Shown here: one piece after another, positions 5,914 to 41,273 of the stretch
Layout: each line of letters opens with the position of its first letter
How positions within the stretch are numbered: the first letter of the stretch is position 1
Origin: Clostridia bacterium
GTDB taxonomy: Bacteria > Bacillota > Clostridia > Oscillospirales > RGIG7773
NCBI GenBank assembly: GCA_017554835.1
Contig: JAFZHO010000039.1
Span: forward strand, 106-64,105
Length of the DNA: 64,000 nucleotides
Direction of reading: 5' to 3'
Made by a program: the position numbers and the translations under genes
Notes under the pieces: generated by a model
Seen by the model: only the letters and a program-made list of their open reading frames with translations
Told to the model about the DNA's origin: nothing
Databases searched by the model: none

Positions 5914-7251
5914 TTACGCCGATTTTTTTATTTTCAGATTAATCGTTAATAAAATCGCCAAAATCCCACTTGCCGTGCAAGAGAAAAGAGGAGTCAGCCA
6001 TACCCCGTTTAACTGCCATATAGGAGATAAGATAAAAAGAAACGCTATGGGGAAAAATAAGGTGCCGAAAAAGGAAATGACCAAAGATCTTGCAGGTCTT
6101 TCAATAGAGGTAAAGAACGAAGAAAAGCACATATCCACCCACCCCGTAAGATAAGAAAGGGAGAAAAACTTCATCCCGATAATACTGATTTTTAAAAGCT
6201 CCGTATCCTCAGGTTTTATAAAAAATGGAGCAACGTATCTTCCCAAAAAGAGCATAAAAAGCATCGCCGCCGCAGATAATATAATGGCGCTGATAATAAC
6301 CCGATTAAAAAGCTGACGGACTTTTTTTAAAAGATTTGCTCCATAGCAGTAGCTTATTGCGGGAGAAATAGCATCACACATTCCAAAGCAGAGCATTCCT
6401 ATAATACTATCAACATACATAATAACGGAAAAAGCGGCAACTGCTGTTGTTCCACCGTATTCAAGGAGAAAAAAGTTATAGGCAACAGACATAACGGACA
6501 TAGAAATATTGCTGAAAAATTCGCTTGACCCGTTTGCGAGGATTTTGAGAAAATCTTTCAAGGGTATAATTTCCTTTATATAATAAACGTCCATTTTCTT
6601 TTTTCGGAAAAGAAAAAGAGTGAAAAGGGAACCGATTGCCATGGAGAAGCAACTGGTAAAGGCGGCAGCCCATATTCCCTGACCAAGAAAAGCAATAAGA
6701 ATAACGTCCATTGCTATATTAAATAGCTGAGTAAAAATACTTATCCACATACTGATTTTTTCTCTTCCGCAAACACGAAGGTAGTTATCGGTAGCAAAGA
6801 AAATTAGCATAAGAGGAGAAAAAACAGCGTAAACACGAAGGTATATAGCTCCGTATTTAATAGAAAGTTCTGATGCACCGGGGCCGAGAAAACGAATAAA
6901 ATCTTCTGCAAAAACATAACCGAAAATTCCGATTATTATAGAGAGAATAAAAATAAATTTAAGAGAGGAAGAAAAAACTTTCGAAGCTTCCTCTCTTTTT
7001 TTCTCGCCGAGAAGAATAGAGATTCTCACGGATGCTCCCGTTGCAATCATATTGGAAAAAGCAAAAACCATCATAATCACAGGCATAATGAGGTTAATGG
7101 CGGCAAGACCGTCCTCACCAATAAATCTACCCACGAAAAGACCGTCTGCAATCTGATATAATGCGCCGAATACCATGGTTATCATTGACGGAATCGCAAG
7201 ACGGAAAAACAATCTGGTTGATGGCAGCTTTTCAAAAATTTCTGAATCCAT
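5914..7251 (-). CDS. MATE family efflux transporter (MepA-like)
   Basis: 12-TM protein with a typical MATE N-terminus (LAIPSMITMVFGALYQIADGLFVG). The start is set at the ATG at 7251, preceded by GGAGG. The 53-codon extension in the ORF track covers the leader. Confidence 0.85.
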   Translation of the reverse strand: MDSEIFEKLPSTRLFFRLAIPSMITMVFGALYQIADGLFVGRFIGEDGLAAINLIMPVIMMVFAFSNMIATGASVRISILLGEKKREEASKVFSSSLKFIFILSIIIGIFGYVFAEDFIRFLGPGASELSIKYGAIYLRVYAVFSPLMLIFFATDNYLRVCGREKISMWISIFTQLFNIAMDVILIAFLGQGIWAAAFTSCFSMAIGSLFTLFLFRKKKMDVYYIKEIIPLKDFLKILANGSSEFFSNISMSVMSVAYNFFLLEYGGTTAVAAFSVIMYVDSIIGMLCFGMCDAISPAISYCYGANLLKKVRQLFNRVIISAIILSAAAMLFMLFLGRYVAPFFIKPEDTELLKISIIGMKFFSLSYLTGWVDMCFSSFFTSIERPARSLVISFFGTLFFPIAFLFILSPIWQLNGVWLTPLFSCTASGILAILLTINLKIKKSA

Positions 7252-7308
7252 TTTGACCTCCATAAGGTGACAAGACCATCTTTTCACACAATTTATTCTC
7301 GCAAGGCT

Positions 7309-7353
7309 AAAAAAAGAGCTACGGCTACTACGTTTTTTGTAATAACCGAGCTC
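7309..7353 (-). terminator. Intrinsic terminator/attenuator between bioY and the MATE gene
   Basis: Minus-strand RNA forms GAGCUCGG...CCGUAGCUC (8 bp plus a bulge) followed by UUUUUUU. Confidence 0.6.
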
Positions 7354-7466
7354 ACTCGATATCTTATCTGACAGGCGGCCTGCAAGCAAAACGCTTACTA
7401 TCCCCTGCACTACGGTGCACTGTCCTCCGATGGTTTATATTATACGCTATAATATAAATTTGTCAA
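7354..7466 (-). promoter_or_regulatory. Candidate promoter plus structured GC-rich leader (riboswitch-like three-way junction) upstream of the MATE gene
   Basis: On the minus strand, TTGACA (7466-7461) and TATAAT (7444-7439) are 16 nt apart. Downstream, P1 GGACAG/CUGUC (7425-7370) encloses the hairpins UGCAC-CGUA-GUGCA and GUAAGC-GUUUU-GCUUGC. Confidence 0.4.
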
Positions 7467-19170: not shown

Positions 19171-20133
19171 CTAAATCAGTTGTCTGATATCTCTTCCTTT
19201 AAAAAGAAGAAGGTCGTGATACCCCATAAGGCGGGAAACAATACGGTTTTCGTATTTTTTCATAAGGCCGTCGGGCTCAAGGTTTGTTGTGATAAGATTC
19301 AAAAGTCCCTTTTCCTGGCGAATATTTAGGATATTATATAGCATAGCGGTGGAAAAAGGAGTAACCATTTCGCTTCCAAGGTCATCGATAATCAGAAGTG
19401 AACAGTTCATAATTTTATCGGTATATTCATAGCCGATATTTGAGTATTTTTCTTTTTCGGTTTTGTCGAAAAGGTTTTGAGCATAGTCAAAAACTACGTC
19501 TTCTCCCTGCTCAACAAGACAGTTATAAACGCACTTTGATAGAAAAGTTTTGCCCGTGCCGGTATTTCCCGCAAAGATAATTCCCTTTTTGTTTTGAGTA
19601 AGGGTGCGACAAAATTCCTCGGCACGAGATTTAACGAAAGTCATATAATCATACTCGGAAATCTCCTCTGCAACGAGGTGGTCTTTTCGGTAGTAGTTAA
19701 GGTCAAAAGCAGAAAAAGTATTTTCCATTGCTTTTGCCGCGTTTTTAAGAAGACGGATTTCTTCTTTTTTTAATTCTTCTTTGAAGCATTGGCAAGTTTC
19801 TGCCCCTATAAATCCGTAATCGCTGCATTTATCGCAATTATATTTAAGATCCAGATAATCCTCGGGAAGATTCATACTTTTTAGAAGAGATTTGCGTTTT
19901 TCTTTAAGTTCTTTGTCTTTCTTTTTGGCGTTTTCCAGGGAGGCAGAGCCGCCGCTTAGAGCCAAACGGGTAAAGGTGGAAAGATTTGAGATAATTTCTT
20001 TATCGATTTCGGCAATTTCGGGATTTGACTCGTGAATGGAGTTTTTTCTCTTTTCAAAAGCAGCCATCTTTTCCTGCCTTGTTTTTTGAAAGAGGGATTT
20101 AACGTTTTGATATGCTATTTTCTGATAGTTCAT
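19171..20133 (-). CDS. DnaI/DnaC-like helicase-loader AAA+ ATPase
   Basis: Walker A GNTGTGKTFL and Walker B LLIIDDLGSE. An N-terminal Cys cluster (CDKC...CQC) resembles the DnaI zinc domain. Confidence 0.75.
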   Translation of the reverse strand: MNYQKIAYQNVKSLFQKTRQEKMAAFEKRKNSIHESNPEIAEIDKEIISNLSTFTRLALSGGSASLENAKKKDKELKEKRKSLLKSMNLPEDYLDLKYNCDKCSDYGFIGAETCQCFKEELKKEEIRLLKNAAKAMENTFSAFDLNYYRKDHLVAEEISEYDYMTFVKSRAEEFCRTLTQNKKGIIFAGNTGTGKTFLSKCVYNCLVEQGEDVVFDYAQNLFDKTEKEKYSNIGYEYTDKIMNCSLLIIDDLGSEMVTPFSTAMLYNILNIRQEKGLLNLITTNLEPDGLMKKYENRIVSRLMGYHDLLLFKGRDIRQLI

Positions 20134-21077
20134 TATTTACCCTCCTTGCCTTCTTTGATGGTTTTTTCGATTGCACCTTTGAAATATTTATCTATATCGT
20201 AGTTAGGAGTATCGTAGTCCTGAGTTTTTGGAGAAGGATTTGCTTTTTTATATTCTTCTACCTGAACGGGAGTTTTAAGCCCCAAACGAGCCCAAACGTC
20301 AAGAAGTTTATTCATATAGGCAAAAGATAATCTGCCTGTTCTGTCCGCGGCAATATCGTAGGCCTTTTTGATAAGGTCGGTACTTGCTTTTTGCTCGTTT
20401 AACCATAAAGATATATATTTTTTCTCGTTTTCGGTAAAGGCACGGTTAATTCCAAGAAGATTTTTGATTTTTGAAACGGCTTTTTGGAATTTTTCCTGCT
20501 CCATAAGATATTTATCTGCTTTTTCGAGAGTGTTGATTCCGTTTTTGCTCCAGGTGGCGCAGACTTTTTCGATATATGCGATGCCGGTTTTTCCAAGGGC
20601 TTTGCAGTAACTTACGCAAGTGAGAATAACCTCAAAAGGCAACCCGTGGTAATCATAAATTCCATAAAGTTTAACGAGGTCGCTTTTTGAAATGGTATGG
20701 CCGATAAGTTCCTCGTATTGAAAAACAAAAGAGGAAAACTCGCTTTCCGCCATTTTATCCTGGATTTCGGAAATATCGTAATTCGGCGTAAGTTCGTTTT
20801 TGCGAACAATATTATTAACAAGATAAAATCTGCCGTTTTTCTCTGCCATAACGCCTTTTTCCCGCCAGAAATTAAAGGATGCTTCAATTCGGGAAGAAGA
20901 TAGCCCCGTATCCTTTTTCAAAAGTTCTATAGAAAGTTTGGTGTTCTGATTTCTGAGAAGATATAAAATTATCTTAAGATCGCTTTCGGAAGCGTCTTTC
21001 AGATGAAGGTCAACGATATCCGACGGCACCATAAAAAATCTGCCGTATAAGGACATATCAAATATTATATTTTCCAT
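20133..21077 (-). CDS. DnaD/DnaB-type replication initiation protein (DnaD-domain)
   Basis: Two DnaD-like repeat regions (e.g. LYGIYDYHGLPFEVILTCVSY; ISLWLNEQKASTDLIKKAYD). It sits immediately upstream of the dnaI-like gene with a 1-nt overlap. The start at 21077 follows GAGGAGG. Confidence 0.65.
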   Translation of the reverse strand: MENIIFDMSLYGRFFMVPSDIVDLHLKDASESDLKIILYLLRNQNTKLSIELLKKDTGLSSSRIEASFNFWREKGVMAEKNGRFYLVNNIVRKNELTPNYDISEIQDKMAESEFSSFVFQYEELIGHTISKSDLVKLYGIYDYHGLPFEVILTCVSYCKALGKTGIAYIEKVCATWSKNGINTLEKADKYLMEQEKFQKAVSKIKNLLGINRAFTENEKKYISLWLNEQKASTDLIKKAYDIAADRTGRLSFAYMNKLLDVWARLGLKTPVQVEEYKKANPSPKTQDYDTPNYDIDKYFKGAIEKTIKEGKEGK

Positions 21078-21221
21078 AAAAACGCCTCCTCGAAAATTCC
21101 GTATGCAACAATTATACCATATTAAATAATCCAAAATCAACTCGAAAGGATATAAAGTTGATAAGATGCGAGTTTTATGGTATTATAAAATAGAATTAAT
21201 ATGGTCAAAAGGAGAAAATTT

Positions 21222-22979: not shown

Positions 22980-25837
<2,858 letters not shown>

Positions 25838-25838
<1 letters not shown>

Positions 25839-25869: not shown

Positions 25870-26658
25870 CTATAATATTATCTTTTCGCTTATTTTATCA
25901 AAGTCGGCGACGGAGAGGGTATAGTCGGTATTTTTTGCCCCGTGGGAGCTAAGGGCTTCTCTTGCGCTTTCAAGGGCGAGGGAAGGCAGATTATTCTCAC
26001 GGCTCAGATGCCCCAAAACGAACTGGTCGGTTTTTGTTTCTAAAAGCTTAACAATAAACTTTGCGCAGTTTTCGTTGGATAAATGCCCGAAATCCGAAAG
26101 AATTCTTCTTTTCAGAGGGTATGGGTATTTAGGGTTTGATAATAGCATATTCACGTCGTGGTTTGATTCAATAAGAACTTTATCGCAGGTGATAAGATTT
26201 TTCTCAACGTCCTCGCAGATTTTTCCTATATCCGTTGCGATGCCAAGTTTTTTATCTCCGTTAAAAATGGTATATCCCATACTGTCGGCGCTATCGTGCC
26301 AGGTATTAAAAGGGGTAATCTCTATATCGTTTATGTAAAACGGTTTATCTTTTTCTACTATTTTATATAACGAAGCGTCTATCTCGGGGTAGATGGTTTT
26401 TATTTTTTCCACCGTTTTTTCGTTTGCATAAATGGGAACGGGGAATTTTTTTATAAAGGTTTTGAGAGAATTTATATGGTCGGAATGTTCGTGGGTGATG
26501 AGAATTCCCTGAATTTCGCTATACGAACTATCAAGTTCCGCGAGGGCTTTTGAAATTTTTCGAAAACTTCCGCCACAGTCGATAAGTATGGTGGCTTTAT
26601 CTTTATAGATATAGGAATTTCCCGTGCTTCCGCTGAATAATGAACAAAAATAGCCCAT
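25870..26658 (-). CDS. MBL-fold metallo-hydrolase (YycJ/WalJ-like)
   Basis: HEHSDH metal-binding motif. About 260 aa, located downstream of a WalRK-like two-component system. Confidence 0.75.
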   Translation of the reverse strand: MGYFCSLFSGSTGNSYIYKDKATILIDCGGSFRKISKALAELDSSYSEIQGILITHEHSDHINSLKTFIKKFPVPIYANEKTVEKIKTIYPEIDASLYKIVEKDKPFYINDIEITPFNTWHDSADSMGYTIFNGDKKLGIATDIGKICEDVEKNLITCDKVLIESNHDVNMLLSNPKYPYPLKRRILSDFGHLSNENCAKFIVKLLETKTDQFVLGHLSRENNLPSLALESAREALSSHGAKNTDYTLSVADFDKISEKIIL

Positions 26659-26716
26659 ATAAATCTCCTTTCTTAAAATATTCGCCTTGACAATACTGCC
26701 AAGGCGATTTTTATTA

Positions 26717-28012
26717 TTATATTACGTCTTTTATAACGCTGCCGTCGGGAATAGAGACTTTTTTAATATCAGCGCCAAGACTTCTCAATTTTTCTACCAA
26801 GTTTTCGTAGCCACGTTCGATATAATGGATATCAAGAACCTCTGTTCTGCCCTCGGCAATAAGCCCTGCAATAACAAGGGCTGCGCCTGCTCTCAAATCG
26901 CAGGAGCTAACGGGAGCGCCCATAAGAGAAGAAACTCCCTCAACTACGGCAACCTTGCCGTCAACCTGAATCTCGGCGCCCATTTTATTCAGTTCGCCAA
27001 CGTAGCGGAAACGATGGTCATATACGCCCTCGGTTACGATGCTTGTCCCCTTTGCGATAGAAAGAAGAGTGGTAAACTGAGGTTGCATATCCGTTGGGAA
27101 ACCGGGATAATAATAGGTTTTTATATTAGTTTTTGTTAGTGGGTTTTTATAGAAAACGCGAACGGCATCATCGTATTCCTCAACGCCAACCCCTGCTTCG
27201 ATAAGTTTTGCAGTGATGCATTCAAGATGCTTTGGAATTACGTTTTTTATAGTAACGTCGCCCAAAGTTGCCGCCGCCGCAACCATATAAGTTCCCGCTT
27301 CTATCTGGTCGGGGATAATGGTATAGGTAGCACCAAAAAGTTTAGGAACGCCGTTAATTTTTATAACGTCGGTTCCTGCACCTTTAACGTCGGCGCCCAT
27401 TGTATTCAAAAAGTTTGCCAAATCAACTATATGAGGTTCTTTTGCGGCATTTTCGATAATGGTCTGGCCCTCTGCCTTTGCTGCTGCAAGCATAATATTG
27501 ATAGTTGCGCCAACGCTTGCCATATCAAGATAAATAGAGGTTCCTATAAGTTTATCAACGCTTGCTACTATGCAGCCGCCGTCTGCCTGAATCTCGGCAC
27601 CAAGAAGGGTAAAGCCCTTGAGATGCTGGTCAATGGGACGAACTCCGAAATCGCAACCGCCCGGCATGGGAACGGCGCATTTGCCGCATCTTCCAAGGAG
27701 CGCTCCGATAAGATAGCAGGAAGCGCGCATTTTTGCGGGAAGGTCGGGGGGAGCTTCAAAGGTTCTGACGCCGTCGCAGTTAATCTCAACGGTGGAAGAA
27801 TCGATATAGCGAACGGTGGCGCCCATTGTATATAAAATTTCAAGCATTAGTTTGACGTCGCTGATATTGGGAAGGTTTTCGATAATGCAGGGTCCGTCTG
27901 CAAGAAGGGTAGCGGGAATTACTGCAACGGCAGCATTTTTAGCACCGGCAATCTCAACACTGCCGATGAGTTTTTTGTTGCCGTGTATAACGTATTTTTC
28001 CAAAAATATCAT
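26717..28012 (-). CDS. murA: UDP-N-acetylglucosamine 1-carboxyvinyltransferase
   Basis: VEIAGAKNAA near the N-terminus and the active-site loop PGGCDFGVRPIDQHLKG with Cys retained. Full-length EPSP-synthase fold. Confidence 0.93.
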   Translation of the reverse strand: MIFLEKYVIHGNKKLIGSVEIAGAKNAAVAVIPATLLADGPCIIENLPNISDVKLMLEILYTMGATVRYIDSSTVEINCDGVRTFEAPPDLPAKMRASCYLIGALLGRCGKCAVPMPGGCDFGVRPIDQHLKGFTLLGAEIQADGGCIVASVDKLIGTSIYLDMASVGATINIMLAAAKAEGQTIIENAAKEPHIVDLANFLNTMGADVKGAGTDVIKINGVPKLFGATYTIIPDQIEAGTYMVAAAATLGDVTIKNVIPKHLECITAKLIEAGVGVEEYDDAVRVFYKNPLTKTNIKTYYYPGFPTDMQPQFTTLLSIAKGTSIVTEGVYDHRFRYVGELNKMGAEIQVDGKVAVVEGVSSLMGAPVSSCDLRAGAALVIAGLIAEGRTEVLDIHYIERGYENLVEKLRSLGADIKKVSIPDGSVIKDVI

Positions 28013-28055
28013 CCCCAATACAATTATTCATATTATTATAACATTTTAGAAATAT

Positions 28056-29795
28056 TTATGCAATAGGTAAAGAAAGAACAAATCTATTTCCATTTTCAAA
28101 AGAAGCATCAAGATAAAGGTCGCCGCCGTGTTTTCTTGAGCTTTCTCTTGAGATAGCAAGACCAAGCCCCGTTCCGCCTGTTTGGCGTGAACGTGCTTTA
28201 TCAACGCGGAAAAATCTCTCAAAAATTTTATCGTTATATTCAGACGGGATTTTTTCGCCGTGGTCAATAACGGACATAATAATATTGTTGCCTTTTTTCT
28301 CGGTTGTAATTCTGATAGTATCTTTTTTTATTGTGTATTTTATGGCATTTGATATAATGTTTTCTACGCAGCGGTAAATAAGGTTTTCGTCTGCGGTTAT
28401 GGAAAATTCAAAGAGGTTTTCAAGGTCGAAGGAAATCTCTTTTTCTTTTGCGTTTATGGAAACGTTTTTAACTGCGGACAAGATAGTTTCTTTTATATCA
28501 AATACTGATTTTGAAAGGGTTTCTTCCTTTTCGTTTTTAGATAAAGTAAGCATATCCTTAACGATTTTTGCCATTCTGTCCGTTTCCTTTAATATGGTAT
28601 TTAGAAAATCTTTTTTGATTTCGGATGGCATTTCATCATCGTCATAAATACTCTGGGCATAGCTTTTAACCACGGTAAGTGGGGTTTTGAGCTCGTGGGA
28701 AGCGTTTGCCGCAAAGGTTTTTTGCAAGGTTATGTAATTTTGTTCCTCGGAAACGTCGTGGATTATGCAGAGAAGATTTTTCTCACTTGTTTCAAAGGGG
28801 GCAAAAATGATTTTCAGGGTTTTATCCTCTTTTGGAAGAAGATAGGAAAAAGTTTTTTCTCCCATATCAAGAAGGTCCTTAAAATCTTTTTCAAGGAAAG
28901 AGAAGATGGAGGAGAACAAAGCTTTTTTATCAAAATTAAAAAGCTCTTTTGCAACGTCGTTATAGTGATAAAGTTTTCCCTCTTTTGAAAAAACCATTAC
29001 TCCGTCTGTCAGATGGGAGAAGATGGCGGAGAGCTTATTTTTCTCGTCGTTAAGATTGTCGAGGGAGGTTTTTAACTTTGAGGACATACTGTCAAATGCT
29101 TTTGATAAAAGCCCGATTTCGTCGGTGCTTTTGGAATTTAAGCGAAATTCCAGATTTCCTTCTTCGATTTTCTTTGCTGCAAAGGTTAAATCCTCGATGG
29201 GTTTTGTTATTATTTTTGAAATTTTAAAAGATAAAATAACAGAAATCAAAAGCCCTAAAAAACAGCACCCCAAAGTAACAACGGAAACAGAGGAGATAAT
29301 GCTATTTACTTTTGCCATGCTATCCGTCACGCATATAACTCCAAGAATCTGGGTTTTGTATTTAAGGGGCGTGCAGAAAATCATTGACCTGCCAAAATAA
29401 TTTATAGAGTTTTCAAAATTGCCGTTAAGGGCGTTTTTGAAATTTTCTGTTTTGATTATTTCGTCGTTTTGAAGATGGCTTTCTCCCGAAAGGGTTTTTC
29501 CGTCGGCAGATAAAATTATATATCCACGGTCGCTGTTAAGGGATAGATTCAGCTTCTGATTTTCTACTCCTTCCATAACGCTATGCAAAAAATCCTCATT
29601 GCTTTTTGAAAGGGCGGCATACTGACCTATAAAATCCTTATTCAGAACTTTTTCCGTATCGGAATAAAAATTATTTATAAAGAAAAACCGAACGGAAAGA
29701 CTGATAAGGGACCCAACGAAAAAAAGCATTACAATAACAAGACAAATAAAAGAAATGAGAAATTTAGTTTTTATGGTATTTTTCTTTTCTTTCAT
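28056..29795 (-). CDS. Sensor histidine kinase (TM-HAMP-PAS-HisKA-HATPase), WalK/PhoR-like
   Basis: H-box FAANASHELKTPLT and N/G boxes (NAIKYT; DHGEKIP...GGTGLGLAI). Two TM segments flank an extracellular domain. The start lies 4 nt after the RR stop. Confidence 0.85.
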   Translation of the reverse strand: MKEKKNTIKTKFLISFICLVIVMLFFVGSLISLSVRFFFINNFYSDTEKVLNKDFIGQYAALSKSNEDFLHSVMEGVENQKLNLSLNSDRGYIILSADGKTLSGESHLQNDEIIKTENFKNALNGNFENSINYFGRSMIFCTPLKYKTQILGVICVTDSMAKVNSIISSVSVVTLGCCFLGLLISVILSFKISKIITKPIEDLTFAAKKIEEGNLEFRLNSKSTDEIGLLSKAFDSMSSKLKTSLDNLNDEKNKLSAIFSHLTDGVMVFSKEGKLYHYNDVAKELFNFDKKALFSSIFSFLEKDFKDLLDMGEKTFSYLLPKEDKTLKIIFAPFETSEKNLLCIIHDVSEEQNYITLQKTFAANASHELKTPLTVVKSYAQSIYDDDEMPSEIKKDFLNTILKETDRMAKIVKDMLTLSKNEKEETLSKSVFDIKETILSAVKNVSINAKEKEISFDLENLFEFSITADENLIYRCVENIISNAIKYTIKKDTIRITTEKKGNNIIMSVIDHGEKIPSEYNDKIFERFFRVDKARSRQTGGTGLGLAISRESSRKHGGDLYLDASFENGNRFVLSLPIA

Positions 29796-29799
29796 ATAA

Positions 29800-30465
29800 T
29801 TACTCCAAATCAAGATAATATCCTGCGCCACGCCGGGTTTTAATGATATCAAAGTTTTCCATCTTTGCACGAAGACGCTTTATGGTAACGTCAACCCCAC
29901 GGGTATCGCCGATATATTCTTCGTATCCCCAGATTTTTTTGAGAAGCTCTTCTCTTGAAAATACTCTTGACGGATTTTTTGAAAAAAGGTCTAAAAGAAG
30001 ATTTTCCCTTGCGGTGAGGGGGATTTTTTCTCCGTTTAAAATTATTTCGCTATTTTTAAAATCAAAGAAAAGATTTTCCTTTAATAAAAGTCTGTCTGAT
30101 TTGGGCGGGGCTTTTCTGATATTTGCGTTGATTCTTGCAATAAGCTCTCTGTTTGAAAAGGGCTTTGAAACGTAGTCGTTTGCCCCAAGCTCGAACCCTC
30201 GCACCTTTGAATCCTCGTCATCCATGGCGGTGAGCATAATTACGGGGGTGGTTTTTTTCTCACGAAGGCCCTTTAAAATATCAAATCCGTTCATAAAGGG
30301 GAGCATTACGTCAAGAAGGATAATATCAAAATCCTCTTTAAGAGAAAGAGAAAGTCCTTTTTCTCCGTCCGTTGCAAAAGAGAGGGAAAAGCCCTCTTTA
30401 TCAAGAATATATTTTAAAATTGAAATTATATTTTCGTCGTCTTCGACTATAAGGATTTTGCTCAT
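29800..30465 (-). CDS. OmpR-family response regulator
   Basis: Receiver domain (ILIVEDD...DIILLDVMLP...K) plus a winged-helix C-terminus (DVTIKRLRAKM...TRRGAGY). RBS GGGGGAGGG. Confidence 0.9.
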   Translation of the reverse strand: MSKILIVEDDENIISILKYILDKEGFSLSFATDGEKGLSLSLKEDFDIILLDVMLPFMNGFDILKGLREKKTTPVIMLTAMDDEDSKVRGFELGANDYVSKPFSNRELIARINANIRKAPPKSDRLLLKENLFFDFKNSEIILNGEKIPLTARENLLLDLFSKNPSRVFSREELLKKIWGYEEYIGDTRGVDVTIKRLRAKMENFDIIKTRRGAGYYLDLE

Positions 30466-30664
30466 TATTATCCCTCCCCCCATTTTTCTTCATTATATCA
30501 TATATTATAAAGAAGTGTAAACACGTTATAATAAGGAAAAAAGTTAAAAATGAAATTTAAATTTCAAAAGTAAATTTTGGTTAAAGAAAAATTAGTTTAC
30601 ATAACACGACGGTAAATCAAGGGTTTTGGGAGAAATGGAAAATTTTAAAGGTAAGAAACATAGC

Positions 30665-30797
30665 ATTATCAAGGGTTATCAACATTATCCACCGAGTTAT
30701 CCACAATAATTATGTTAACATTGCAAGTAAATGTTAAAAAAAAATTATCCACCGCCCAAAATGGCTATATTCCACACTTTTCACAGAGTTATCCACA
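30665..30797 (+). promoter_or_regulatory. Cluster of 5 strong plus 2 weak DnaA-box motifs, all in one orientation
   Basis: Perfect TTATCCACA at 30697-705 and 30789-797. TTATCCACC at 30685-693 and 30745-753. TATTCCACA at 30768-776. TTATCAACA at 30676-684. A weaker TTATCAAGG at 30665-673. Confidence 0.6.
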
Positions 30798-30973
30798 ATT
30801 CCGGTGATTTTCTTCGGCAAAAAGGAACTGCTCCCGAACCCTTGATTTTCAAGGATTTGGAGAGTTTTTTACAGAAAATGACGCAAGATGAGACAAAAAT
30901 TCACTTTTTTCGACTTTGGATTTTTAAAGGTCGTGTCAATAGCAAAGTTTGACTTTTTTCAAAAAAATTTTTA

Positions 30974-31002
30974 TTGACATATCAAAATATATTTTGTATA
31001 AT
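30974..31002 (+). promoter_or_regulatory. Sigma-A promoter for the thiT leader
   Basis: TTGACA, a 17-nt spacer, then TATAAT. Confidence 0.7.
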
Positions 31003-31007
31003 CTTGT

Positions 31008-31092
31008 TGAATCAGGGGTGCTGTAAAAAGCTGAGAGAAATTTATTTCAACCCTTTTAACCTGAAGTGGATAATGCCATCGTAGGAAGATTT
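31008..31092 (+). promoter_or_regulatory. TPP (THI-box) riboswitch
   Basis: Conserved elements GGGGUGC...CUGAGA...ACCCUUUUAACCUGA...GGAUAAUGCC.UCGUAGGAA match the TPP aptamer consensus. Confidence 0.9.
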
Positions 31093-31116
31093 AGTTTTTC
31101 ATATCAGCGATAGTAT

Positions 31117-31148
31117 ATCCATAGAGGTAATCTCTATGGATTTTTTTC
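31117..31148 (+). terminator. Riboswitch expression-platform terminator
   Basis: Stem atccatagag/ctctatggat followed by a T7 run, upstream of the thiT RBS. Confidence 0.8.
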
Positions 31149-31192
31149 ATCTTTAGGGAGATATTATTATATTTCTTAAAGGAGGGTTTTCG

Positions 31193-31816
31193 ATGAAAAC
31201 CGAAAAAACCACTGCGCTGGTTGAATGCGCAGTAATGGTGGCACTGGCTACCATATTATCTTTTATCAAAATCATGGACTTGCCATACGGAGGGTCAATC
31301 ACCCTTTGCTCCATGGTGCCACTTATTATCGTTTCCTATCGAAGAGGAACAAAATGGGGTATTATGGCTGCTTTCGTTTTTAGCTTAATTCAGCTTTTGA
31401 CGGGGCTATCATCTATCAAGGGAATAACGGGCTTCTTTATCGTTATGGGGTCTATTCTTCTTGATTACGTAATCGCCTATACGGTTTTAGGTCTTGGAGG
31501 CGTTTTCAGAAACAGCGTTAAAAATCCTGCAATTTCACTTGGTCTTGGAGCTATGATATCCTGCGTTTTGAGATATTTTTGCAGTTTTTTATCCGGAGCG
31601 CTTTTTTGGAGCGAATATGCAACGGATACTCTGAGTTCCATGGCAGAAAAAGGACTTGCCATTGCAGGTCAGATTCTTGAAAACTATTCAGGAACGGCGC
31701 TTTCTATGCTATACTCTCTTCTTTATAACGGACTTTATATGATTCCTGAGATTATTCTGACCGTTGCGGTTTGCGTTATTCTCGGATTTTCTAAAAAAAT
31801 AGCCACTAAATACTAA
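31193..31816 (+). CDS. thiT: Thiamine transporter ThiT/YuaJ (ECF S component)
   Basis: 6-TM protein of about 200 aa, immediately downstream of the TPP riboswitch. The sequence is consistent with the YuaJ/ThiT family. Confidence 0.75.
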   Translation: MKTEKTTALVECAVMVALATILSFIKIMDLPYGGSITLCSMVPLIIVSYRRGTKWGIMAAFVFSLIQLLTGLSSIKGITGFFIVMGSILLDYVIAYTVLGLGGVFRNSVKNPAISLGLGAMISCVLRYFCSFLSGALFWSEYATDTLSSMAEKGLAIAGQILENYSGTALSMLYSLLYNGLYMIPEIILTVAVCVILGFSKKIATKY

Positions 31817-31902
31817 AAAAAGCCACCCCACCGGGTGCTTTTTTTAAGCTTATATGCTATAATTAATCTTGTAACCTTAAATATTTTATTATGGAGAATT
31901 CT

Positions 31903-33411
31903 ATGAACAAAATCAAAATTGGATGGGCGGAAATTGATATAACCCCCGAAAAGAAAGTTTCTCTTATCGGTCAGTTTTCCGAGAGGATTTCGGAATTTGT
32001 TGAAAAACCGTTGACGGCAACGGCGCTTGCTCTGGAATCAGATGGCAAAGTGGCTGTTTTTTGCTCTTGCGACCTTGTGGGAACGGACTGGGCTTTATTG
32101 GATGCAGTGAGAAAACGCCTTTGCGAAAAAAATGCGCCTTTTGATGTGAATTCCGTTATTATAAACGCTACCCACGTTCATACTGCGGGATATAGCAGCA
32201 TGTATCGAAATGCGCCCGAAGGTCAGGGACTTTTTGAAAATTACAGAAAAACCATTTTGGAATATTTAGCTCCCAATCAGAAATACGTTGATAATTCAAA
32301 AACGGAAAAAAGAGAGGACGTTGCAACTCCAAAAGAGATATTTGATATTCTTGTTGACAGAATTTCGAAGGTTATTTTGCTTGCATACGAGAGAAGAAAA
32401 GAAGGCTCTTTTGTAAACGCTTTTGGTAGAGCGCCCGTTGGAATGTGCCGTCGCAGTGCGTTTTCCGACGGTACTGCTCAGATGTGGGGCGATACCAATA
32501 CGGAAAAATTTACCCAGCTTGAAGGCGGCAGTGATACCGGTATTGAGTTATTATACTTTTTTGATGAAGATAAAAAACTTACGGGAATCGTGGCAAATCT
32601 TGCCTGCCCTGCTCAGTGCGTTCAGCACCGCCATTTTGTTTCTCCTGATTTCTGGGGCGAAGCAAAAATGCTTTTGCGAAAAAGGTTTGGGGAAAATATT
32701 TTCTTATTGCCTCAGTGCTCGGCAGCGGGAGATCAGTGCCCCGTTGACCTTGTGCGCTTCGTTGAGCCTGAAAGTGATCTGGACGACCCCAACTGCATAA
32801 GAATTAATCCACCAAAAAGAAAAGCAGATCCGTCTATGTTTGACCTATCGGGAATGAAACTTACGGGCAGAAGAATTGCAAACGAGATTATTATGGTATA
32901 TGAGGATGGTCTTGATGATCCCGTTTTGTCCGCGGCTTTTGAGCATAAAATAATAAAGATGCCTCTGCCTCTTCGCCGCGCCACCGATGATGACGTTAAA
33001 AACGCAAAAGAGGGAATCCGTTCTTATATGGCGGCAAAAGAGGGTGACGTTGACTTTAACGATATTGCCATGGTGATGATTCATCTGGGGGTTTTAGATA
33101 GAGAAAAACTTCAAAAAGAAGTGGAATTTATCGAGGAGGAGATTCATATTATCCGACTTGGAGATATTTCTTTTGCAACAAATCCTTTTGAACTTTTCTT
33201 AAATTACGGAAATCAGATAAAAGCAAGATCAAAAAGCGAGCAGACCTTTATCGTGCAACTTGCAAACGGAGCGGAAGGATATCTTCCCACCAAAATTGCG
33301 GAACTTCACGGTCATTACAGCGGATTTATTTCAAGCGGTCTTATTGGTCACGAGGGAGGAGAGATTCTGGTTGAAAAGACTCTTTCTCATATTGCAGACC
33401 TATTCGAATAA
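31903..33411 (+). CDS. Hypothetical cytoplasmic protein; N-terminus resembles the neutral/alkaline ceramidase-like fold
   Basis: The pattern GWAEIDITP...L.G...R...D.L.A.ALALE and ATHVHT is reminiscent of that family. The call is weak. Confidence 0.35.
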   Translation: MNKIKIGWAEIDITPEKKVSLIGQFSERISEFVEKPLTATALALESDGKVAVFCSCDLVGTDWALLDAVRKRLCEKNAPFDVNSVIINATHVHTAGYSSMYRNAPEGQGLFENYRKTILEYLAPNQKYVDNSKTEKREDVATPKEIFDILVDRISKVILLAYERRKEGSFVNAFGRAPVGMCRRSAFSDGTAQMWGDTNTEKFTQLEGGSDTGIELLYFFDEDKKLTGIVANLACPAQCVQHRHFVSPDFWGEAKMLLRKRFGENIFLLPQCSAAGDQCPVDLVRFVEPESDLDDPNCIRINPPKRKADPSMFDLSGMKLTGRRIANEIIMVYEDGLDDPVLSAAFEHKIIKMPLPLRRATDDDVKNAKEGIRSYMAAKEGDVDFNDIAMVMIHLGVLDREKLQKEVEFIEEEIHIIRLGDISFATNPFELFLNYGNQIKARSKSEQTFIVQLANGAEGYLPTKIAELHGHYSGFISSGLIGHEGGEILVEKTLSHIADLFE

Positions 33412-40865: not shown

Positions 40866-41273
40866 TTGAAATCAAGGGGTTTGTGTAGTATTATATGAGG
40901 GTGTCATTATGGGCACAGGTATGCGATGACGCAGAAGGTTGCTGCCGAAAAGCTTACGGCCGTTGGCAACGGAGTTTTTCAAGAGCAGGTAATTTCTGCT
41001 GAGTATGTCCGATTTTAAACCGGGCGACAACGATATTTTTTTTCACATCGGAAAGCGCTTGAAACCGGGCTTTATGCCGGGTTTTGAGAACTGTCCTGAT
41101 AAAGAGGGTGGTTTTCGGGTGCTTTTGAGCAACGGGGGCATTTTGCGCCTGCTGCGGCAACGGAAGGTTTCCTTCCGCTTGCTTAATATTATAGGGCGGA
41201 AACACCCGGCGATGTGTAAACAAAAATCGTCGTCAAACCAAAAATTTTCTAAATTTTTAAGGAGGCGAAAAAA
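40866..41273 (+). promoter_or_regulatory. Promoter plus long, GC-rich structured leader of the S10 operon (class not recognised)
   Basis: TTGAAA (40866-71), a 17-nt spacer, then TATTAT (40889-94). About 370 nt of multi-hairpin sequence follows, including a perfect hairpin CGGAAGG-UUU-CCUUCCG at 41161-77, AAACCGGGC duplicated at 41017 and 41062, and a boxA-like UGCUUUUGAGCAA near 41120. Confidence 0.45.

Follow-up and report, generated by a model that had tools for sequence, protein, structure and literature searches.

The window, by which is meant the whole stretch of 64,000 nucleotides (64 kb) analysed here, derives from a 69-kb metagenome scaffold and includes a non-coding gap of 727 bp (30466-31192) located between a walR-like gene and thiT, which are transcribed away from each other. 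The genes bordering this gap and the features found towards its two ends are the following:

25870-30465, minus strand: WalRK-type operon (response regulator, histidine kinase, MurA and MBL-fold hydrolase)
25870-26658, minus strand: MBL-fold hydrolase in the WalJ position (Pfam/NCBIfam)
26717-28003, minus strand: MurA (above the curated cut-off)
28056-29795, minus strand: HAMP/HisKA histidine kinase (best match WalK, below the curated cut-off)
29800-30465, minus strand: OmpR-type response regulator, walR-like (best NCBIfam match YycF, below the curated cut-off)
30492-30521, minus strand: predicted sigma-A promoter of the walR-walK-murA-MBL operon (TTTACA, 18 nt, TGnTATAAT)
30546-30616, no strand: two blocks of conserved sequence without boxes, lying on the walR promoter side of the DnaA boxes described below
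30974-31002, plus strand: consensus sigma-A promoter of thiT (TTGACA, 17 nt, TATAAT; 12/12 matches)
31004-31104, plus strand: TPP riboswitch (Rfam RF00059, 75.3 bits against a gathering score of 54.3)
31117-31141 and a T run, plus strand: terminator hairpin of the TPP riboswitch (terminator scan), the riboswitch and hairpin unit spanning 31004-31148
31193-31816, plus strand: thiT, ECF thiamine transporter S component (Pfam Thia_YuaJ; NCBIfam TIGR02357, above the cut-off)

The true start of the walR-like gene was placed at the ATG at 30465, which is preceded by GGAGGG, and not at 30483; a database gene call with exactly the same 221-aa product supports this start. The walR promoter scored 11 of 12 matches plus the TG in the promoter scan, and both of its hexamers are kept in the relatives. 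At the right end of the gap the TPP riboswitch and its terminator hairpin fill about 190 bp, and a permissive Rfam search of the gap detected this riboswitch as the only known RNA family, all the other matches having E-values of at least 0.2.

The window operon was considered to be of the WalRK type because a homologous distant operon (L095/L096, 5233-12742; kinase 33% identical) has the canonical order of response regulator, histidine kinase, two genes, murA, MBL-fold gene and rlmH, the two genes at the WalH/WalI position being without Pfam matches. No DnaA-box cluster was found at this distant walRK operon, which makes the link between the cluster and walRK lineage-specific. The downstream junction of the operon is variable, since in the window trmB and the MBL gene are separated by a gene for a LacZ-type beta-galactosidase (22992-25838, plus strand), and in the relative L090 two small ORFs are found there. 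Beside thiT, a gene at 31891-33411 (plus strand) encodes a protein of about 502-506 aa with no Pfam or NCBIfam match, which was present in the window and in near-identical contigs, and missing from the same position in L090 and L091.

A preliminary description of this DNA had presented the gap as a 700-bp non-coding divergence point with AT-rich tracts and with no dnaA nearby, and this picture held. The AT-rich tracts were confirmed, the minus strand carries the four genes to the left and the plus strand every gene in 31193-62219, and no dnaA was detected among the window ORFs of at least 150 aa that were scanned or had precomputed Pfam hits. The same ORF set, which excluded several ORFs (all of at most 276 aa) of the ribosomal-protein cluster at 41-55 kb, contained no dnaN. 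Proximity to dnaA and dnaN is the rule for Firmicute origins without being compulsory. Farther leftward, beyond the four-gene operon, both gene orientations occur (about 13 kb plus and about 15 kb minus), indicating that the orientation switch is local: it is the walR-walK-murA-MBL operon diverging from the TPP-riboswitch/thiT unit, and no more. Ten kilobases left of the DnaA boxes (19171-21140, minus strand) lie two neighbouring genes, one encoding a DnaD/DnaB_2-domain protein and the other an IstB/DnaI-like ATPase, both likely helicase-loading proteins. A prfB frameshift motif was not found near 21.2 kb, which has no bearing on the cluster.

The centre of the gap holds a cluster of DnaA boxes, at a distance of 154 bp from the walR -35 hexamer and 176 bp from that of thiT, with these components:

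30676-30705, plus strand: DnaA-box module 1, three head-to-tail boxes (TTATCAACA at 30676, TTATCCACC at 30685 and TTATCCACA at 30697)
30706-30744, no strand: AT-rich conserved spacer separating module 1 from the single box (64% of columns invariant)
30745-30753, plus strand: single DnaA box, TTATCCACC, between modules 1 and 2
30768-30797, plus strand: DnaA-box module 2 (TATTCCACA at 30768, two mismatches; CTTTTCACA at 30777, weak; TTATCCACA at 30789, perfect)

In the motif search of the window, which allowed up to one mismatch to TTATCCACA, five boxes fell on the plus strand of 30676-30797, a span of 122 bp, while the 64-kb window as a whole had 24 such matches against 16 expected. The two perfect boxes of the preliminary description (30697 and 30789) were confirmed as TTATCCACA on the plus strand, as was its placement of all the boxes on one strand, every site found being on the plus strand. 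Its list of one-mismatch boxes was correct for 30685 and 30745 (both TTATCCACC) and not for 30768 (TATTCCACA), which has two mismatches; conversely, 30676 (TTATCAACA), listed as weaker, has only one mismatch, and the weaker site given at 30665 corresponds to TTATCAAGG at 30666, with three mismatches and without conservation in the relatives. The weak site at 30777 was additional to that list.

The start-to-start spacing in module 1 is 9 and 12 bp, and that of module 2 is identical, the latter module being a 29-nt direct repeat of 30679-30707 (83% identity, offset of 92 bp). An inverted repeat, TTAACATT-N7-AATGTTAA, occupies positions 30715-30737, inside the AT-rich spacer between the box modules. 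A solitary perfect TTATCCACA at 6741-6749 (plus strand), within a MatE-family gene (5914-7410) and with no neighbouring boxes, is probably due to chance. The 11-mer AATCAAGGGTT was observed three times in the gap, at 30615-30625 (plus strand), 30667-30677 (plus strand, one mismatch) and 30837-30847 (minus strand), bracketing the DnaA-box cluster; with at most one mismatch it occurs seven times in the whole window against 2.0 expected. A mobile element bounded by this 11-mer was considered and discarded: in the two relatives with 66% kinase identity the 11-mer is retained only beside the first box, the outer copies not being conserved there as the boxes are, and the cluster has no second copy.

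Five boxes with at most one mismatch per 150 bp compare with a maximum of three in 200 block-shuffles of the window, and none of 80 unrelated OmpR-family response-regulator loci (1.3 Mb) had three or more boxes per 200 bp. The cluster was also evaluated with the Ishikawa score, A, which is the summed box affinity divided by the mean spacing of four successive boxes (PMC2533591). In Bacillus subtilis, values of A above 0.3 were exclusive to eight regions bound by DnaA in vivo (PMC2533591), and a DnaA-box cluster (DBC) was defined by four successive boxes, each with at most one mismatch to TTATNCACA, and A > 0.3 (PMC2533591). The present cluster yielded A = 0.47 (30676-30753) and 0.38 (30685-30797), both above the threshold of 0.3, and was the only place in the 64-kb window to exceed it; four-box sets still including a cluster box gave 0.05-0.12, and the best value outside the gap was 0.03. 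In the relatives, A ranged from 0.47 to 1.5.

These relatives are four metagenome contigs (L089, L090, L091 and L092) with kinases 86, 67, 66 and 66% identical to that of the window, after which identity in the kinase protein search falls from 66% to 34%. Closer or intermediate relatives were not recovered from species-representative genomes, which gave only paralog-level regulator matches of at most 47% identity, none of them with a box cluster, and none were found in JGI metagenomes. The divergent thiT/walR arrangement was kept in all four relatives, with a gap of 730-800 bp. The alignment of the window with the four relatives (A1; five sequences, about three lineages) gave the following proportions of invariant columns:

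Module 1: 73%
Single box at 30745: 100% (9/9) in the five sequences
Module 2: 80%
Variable stretches 30617-30664 and 30798-30864: 10% and 18%, respectively
TPP riboswitch: 78%

The boxes were thus 73-100% invariant, compared with 10-21% in the flanking spacers. Substitutions inside the boxes fell mostly at the degenerate fifth position of TTATNCACA (TTATCAACA/TTATAAACA/TTATTAACA and TTATCCACC/TTATTCACA), a pattern that would be expected for selection on DnaA recognition, and other changes in the relatives turned weak boxes into better ones, the 30768 site being a one-mismatch box to TTATNCACA in L091 and L092. These alignments show purifying selection on the boxes in the relatives. In all five sequences the first and third boxes of module 1 were 21 bp apart, and the sole indel within the cluster, of 11 bp (about one helical turn), was located in the AT-rich spacer of two relatives. 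Between the walR -35 and the first box there are 154, 154, 156, 165 and 155 bp, values that differ by about zero or one helical turn, an argument for helical phasing that is weak because it is based on only five sequences from about three lineages; from the last box to the thiT -35 the distances were 176, 173, 175, 189 and 189 bp.

Conservation in the gap was not restricted to the boxes. Five non-box blocks (30546-30580, 30593-30616, 30715-30737, 30865-30881 and 30935-30953) had 64-80% of invariant columns. The first of them contains TGAA-N8-TTCA (80% of columns invariant) and the second reads GGTTTACATAA..ACGGTAAAT (75%), whereas the spacers adjoining these two blocks had 9-25%; a GTCAA-N9-TTGAC motif just upstream of the thiT promoter is also among the conserved non-box blocks. 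These blocks may be binding sites for further regulators. Direct repeats of the WalR type (TGTWAH-N5-TGTWAH) were represented in the gap by scattered matches with one or two mismatches, at no conserved position. Three other candidates were discarded. A 73-aa ORF at 30731-30952 is not regarded as coding, its frame being broken in the relatives by indels of 11 and 10-12 nt; a minus-strand promoter inside the cluster (TTAACA-17-CATAAT, 30737-30709) is unlikely to be functional, since its -10 hexamer is CATAAC in three relatives; and a terminator-like hairpin at about 30830-30872, seen by eye only, was absent from the terminator scan and not conserved. In L090, L091 and L092 the sequence TGTCGAA, which we take to match the Spo0A-box consensus, lies between the -35 and -10 hexamers of thiT (columns ~589-600 of alignment A1); the window and L089 do not have it.

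The preliminary description had also raised the possibility of a replication origin uncoupled from dnaA, to be checked through the GC skew. The sliding-window GC skew was positive throughout the 64-kb window, with no sign change at 30.7 kb. Since the coding strand also affects skew, it was split into a coding-strand term and a replication term by using plus- versus minus-strand genes. At the third codon positions of all the window genes C exceeds G on the coding strand (skew between about -0.15 and -0.28), whereas overall G is in excess on that strand, so that the raw skew mixes opposing coding effects and the decomposition was needed. Left of the cluster, plus genes had a skew of +0.076 and minus genes of +0.013, which puts the replication term at +0.045 (95% CI by gene bootstrap 0.020-0.068, with no value below zero); right of the cluster the term was about +0.07 to +0.08, and the third-codon-position skew gave the same result as the overall decomposition. 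Even the first 5 kb leftward, where all the genes are on the minus strand, had a raw skew of +0.057.

In the relatives the replication term also had the same sign on the two flanks (-0.086 and -0.103 in L090; +0.063 and +0.082 in L091), indicating that the cluster lies within one replication arm in three genomes. For L091 (1-21740) the replication-linked skew term was opposite in sign to that of the window and L090, which indicates that the whole walRK-thiT segment is inverted in L091 with respect to the direction of replication, while its internal arrangement and the orientation of the boxes relative to walR and thiT are unchanged.

An unwinding module was looked for as well. In the basal unwinding system, at least three DnaA-trios are found 0-16 bp from a box, and an AT-rich unwinding element comes next (PMC8287927). 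Under a permissive NTN rule, the runs next to the boxes of the cluster were 2-4 long, a length that chance alone gives with a probability of 0.15-0.38; they were not conserved and none was of the CTA type. The DNA to the right of the last box, the expected unwinding side, was less conserved than any other part of the gap (18% invariant). Since the skew does not switch at this site in any of the three genomes, the cluster is outside the chromosome origin. The origin proposed in the preliminary description was abandoned, the skew term having the same sign on both flanks and no convincing, conserved DnaA-trio or unwinding module being seen, though triplet runs of this length are in themselves little informative. 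Box density and local gene divergence were insufficient to call an origin, a question that the splitting of the skew into coding and replication terms, together with the comparison with relatives, settled.

The cluster is real, statistically exceptional, conserved and not coincident with a skew switch. Its sequence features make it most likely a counterpart of the B. subtilis DBCs that lie outside the origin. The known B. subtilis DBCs are yqeG-sda, ywlC-ywlB, ywcI-vpr, yydA-yycS, gcp-ydiF and thdF-jag, with which the locus has in common at least four closely spaced boxes, A > 0.3, a Firmicutes host, an intergenic location (the DBCs lie mostly in the 5' regions of genes) and conservation among related species. 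This likeness extends to every sequence-level feature by which these clusters are recognised; unlike the B. subtilis DBCs, the locus has walRK-murA and thiT as neighbours, with no demonstrable orthology to any DBC, and it is set apart by boxes strictly in one orientation and by a three-box module in duplicate. Deletion of six B. subtilis DBCs led to early initiation, and several of them regulate adjacent genes (PMC3245932). The DnaA-titrating or regulatory cluster of the preliminary description is accordingly retained at the sequence level, through the A values and the conserved boxes, whereas DnaA binding and control of the operon are predictions. In B. subtilis, the titration effect depended on the chromosomal position of the clusters.

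We would put at about even the chance that this DBC-type cluster binds DnaA and modulates walRK as predicted. DnaA, with a probable preference for the ATP form, would occupy the two strong boxes at 30697 and 30789 and spread cooperatively over the weaker boxes of both three-box modules and the central single box, resulting in a nucleoprotein complex of about 120 bp between the two divergent promoters. By analogy with the B. subtilis DBCs, such a complex could hold DnaA molecules off oriC, damping initiation, and could make the adjacent promoter responsive to the level of DnaA or to replication status; binding by DnaA, a role in titration and the choice of target promoter are all inferred. Of the two promoters, that of the walR-walK-murA-MBL cell-wall operon seems the more likely target. 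It is favoured over thiT, weakly, by the conserved sequence that fills most of the stretch from the boxes to the walR promoter, by the walR-side indels that preserve helical phase, by thiT being already under a dedicated riboswitch, and by the functional sense of a link between replication and the cell wall, given that in Staphylococcus aureus WalR controls dnaA and hup (PMC10746227).

The arrangement resembles DnaA-regulated promoters, such as those of dnaA autoregulation and B. subtilis sda, in that a sigma-A promoter has DnaA boxes upstream of it, in the intergenic region of divergent genes. It differs from them in that the first box is 154 bp upstream of the -35 hexamer; since the cluster overlaps neither promoter (154 and 176 bp away), a direct effect on transcription is not evident. 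The S. aureus system also links WalRK, and thus the cell wall, with replication initiation, WalR binding to the dnaA promoter (PMC10746227), although in the opposite direction to the one suggested here, where DnaA boxes lie upstream of walR. A full-text literature search for DnaA, walR and DnaA box together found only work on mycobacterial MtrA.

Direct control of WalRK and MurA by DnaA in this uncultured Clostridia lineage is put forward tentatively. If true, replication-initiation status would feed into cell-wall growth, MurA being the first committed step of peptidoglycan synthesis, and this would constitute the reverse arm of the WalR-to-dnaA link of S. aureus, both of which together could close a feedback loop between replication and the envelope. 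If DnaA binds, the locus would be a clean, phylogenetically supported extra-origin cluster outside the Bacillales, in an uncultured Clostridia lineage. Its position in front of a cell-wall master regulator suggests a route for coordinating replication initiation with wall synthesis. The class of element is already well known, and the finding would extend the class and leave the general picture unchanged.

The alternative that survives best, although on the whole unlikely, is a pure DnaA sink comparable to datA or to the gcp-ydiF DBC, buffering initiation and leaving the neighbouring promoters unaffected. The A value and the conservation speak for it as much as for a regulatory DBC, the boxes are at least 154 bp from either -35 hexamer, and there is a precedent in the B. 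subtilis gcp-ydiF cluster, which is flanked by convergent genes and has no evident part in transcription (PMC2533591). Escherichia coli datA is similar in having about five DnaA boxes outside oriC and in lowering the initiation potential. It acts via IHF-dependent stimulation of DnaA-ATP hydrolysis, and to our knowledge the Firmicutes generally lack IHF. Against a sink without transcriptional effect, the cluster is in a divergent promoter region, like most regulatory DBCs; the interval from the walR promoter to the boxes is largely taken up by conserved blocks, with indels that keep the helical phase; and the orientation of the boxes is conserved with respect to the genes and not with respect to replication.

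An improbable reading is that of a relic, in which a former origin or dnaA-promoter region would have been rearranged and retained as a regulatory DnaA site. It would account for the several conserved non-coding blocks around the boxes, which go beyond the needs of a simple operator, and DnaA-box clusters that act on transcription yet do not fire have been described (PMC13438810). The Pseudomonas aeruginosa oriCII, a non-origin cluster upstream of gidA, is a comparable case. No dnaA, dnaN or rpmH remnant lies nearby, however, and the history is not reconstructable since intermediate lineages were not found.

It is very improbable that the cluster is the operator of another protein with a motif resembling the DnaA box, for example the adjacent OmpR-family regulator, which would use the direct repeats for autoregulation. 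The cluster does lie upstream of the regulator's own gene, and direct repeats with first and third copies 21 bp apart would suit tandem winged-helix binding. Nevertheless, two of the copies are the full 9-mer DnaA consensus and three more match it at 8/9 positions, the variation among the relatives follows the degeneracy of TTATNCACA, the gap is without a conserved TGTWAH-N5-TGTWAH site of the WalR type, and no such clusters exist at the 80 other OmpR-family loci.

Extremely improbable is a chromosomal origin, or half of a bipartite origin, apart from dnaA: the oriC-typical box density, the conserved AT-rich tracts close by, the local gene divergence at the gap, the dnaD-like and dnaI-like genes at 10 kb (19.2-21.1 kb) and a window without dnaA would all suit it, but it was rejected because the decomposed skew of three genomes speaks against it, as do the absence of convincing conserved trios, the mixed orientation leftward and the unconserved unwinding side. 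Firmicute origins with a basal unwinding system likewise have tandem high-affinity boxes with AT-rich DNA nearby, and differ from this locus in what is absent here, namely a skew switch, conserved trios, dnaA and dnaN, and a conserved unwinding side. Further to the right, an apparent S10-spc-alpha ribosomal protein cluster with secY and rpoA extends over 41-56 kb, co-oriented with the inferred direction of replication and headed by an S10-Clostridia ribosomal leader (40918-41030, plus strand; 36.5 bits, just above the gathering score); the proximity of the S10 operon, from about 41 kb, is only suggestive of an origin-proximal position of the DBC-type cluster.
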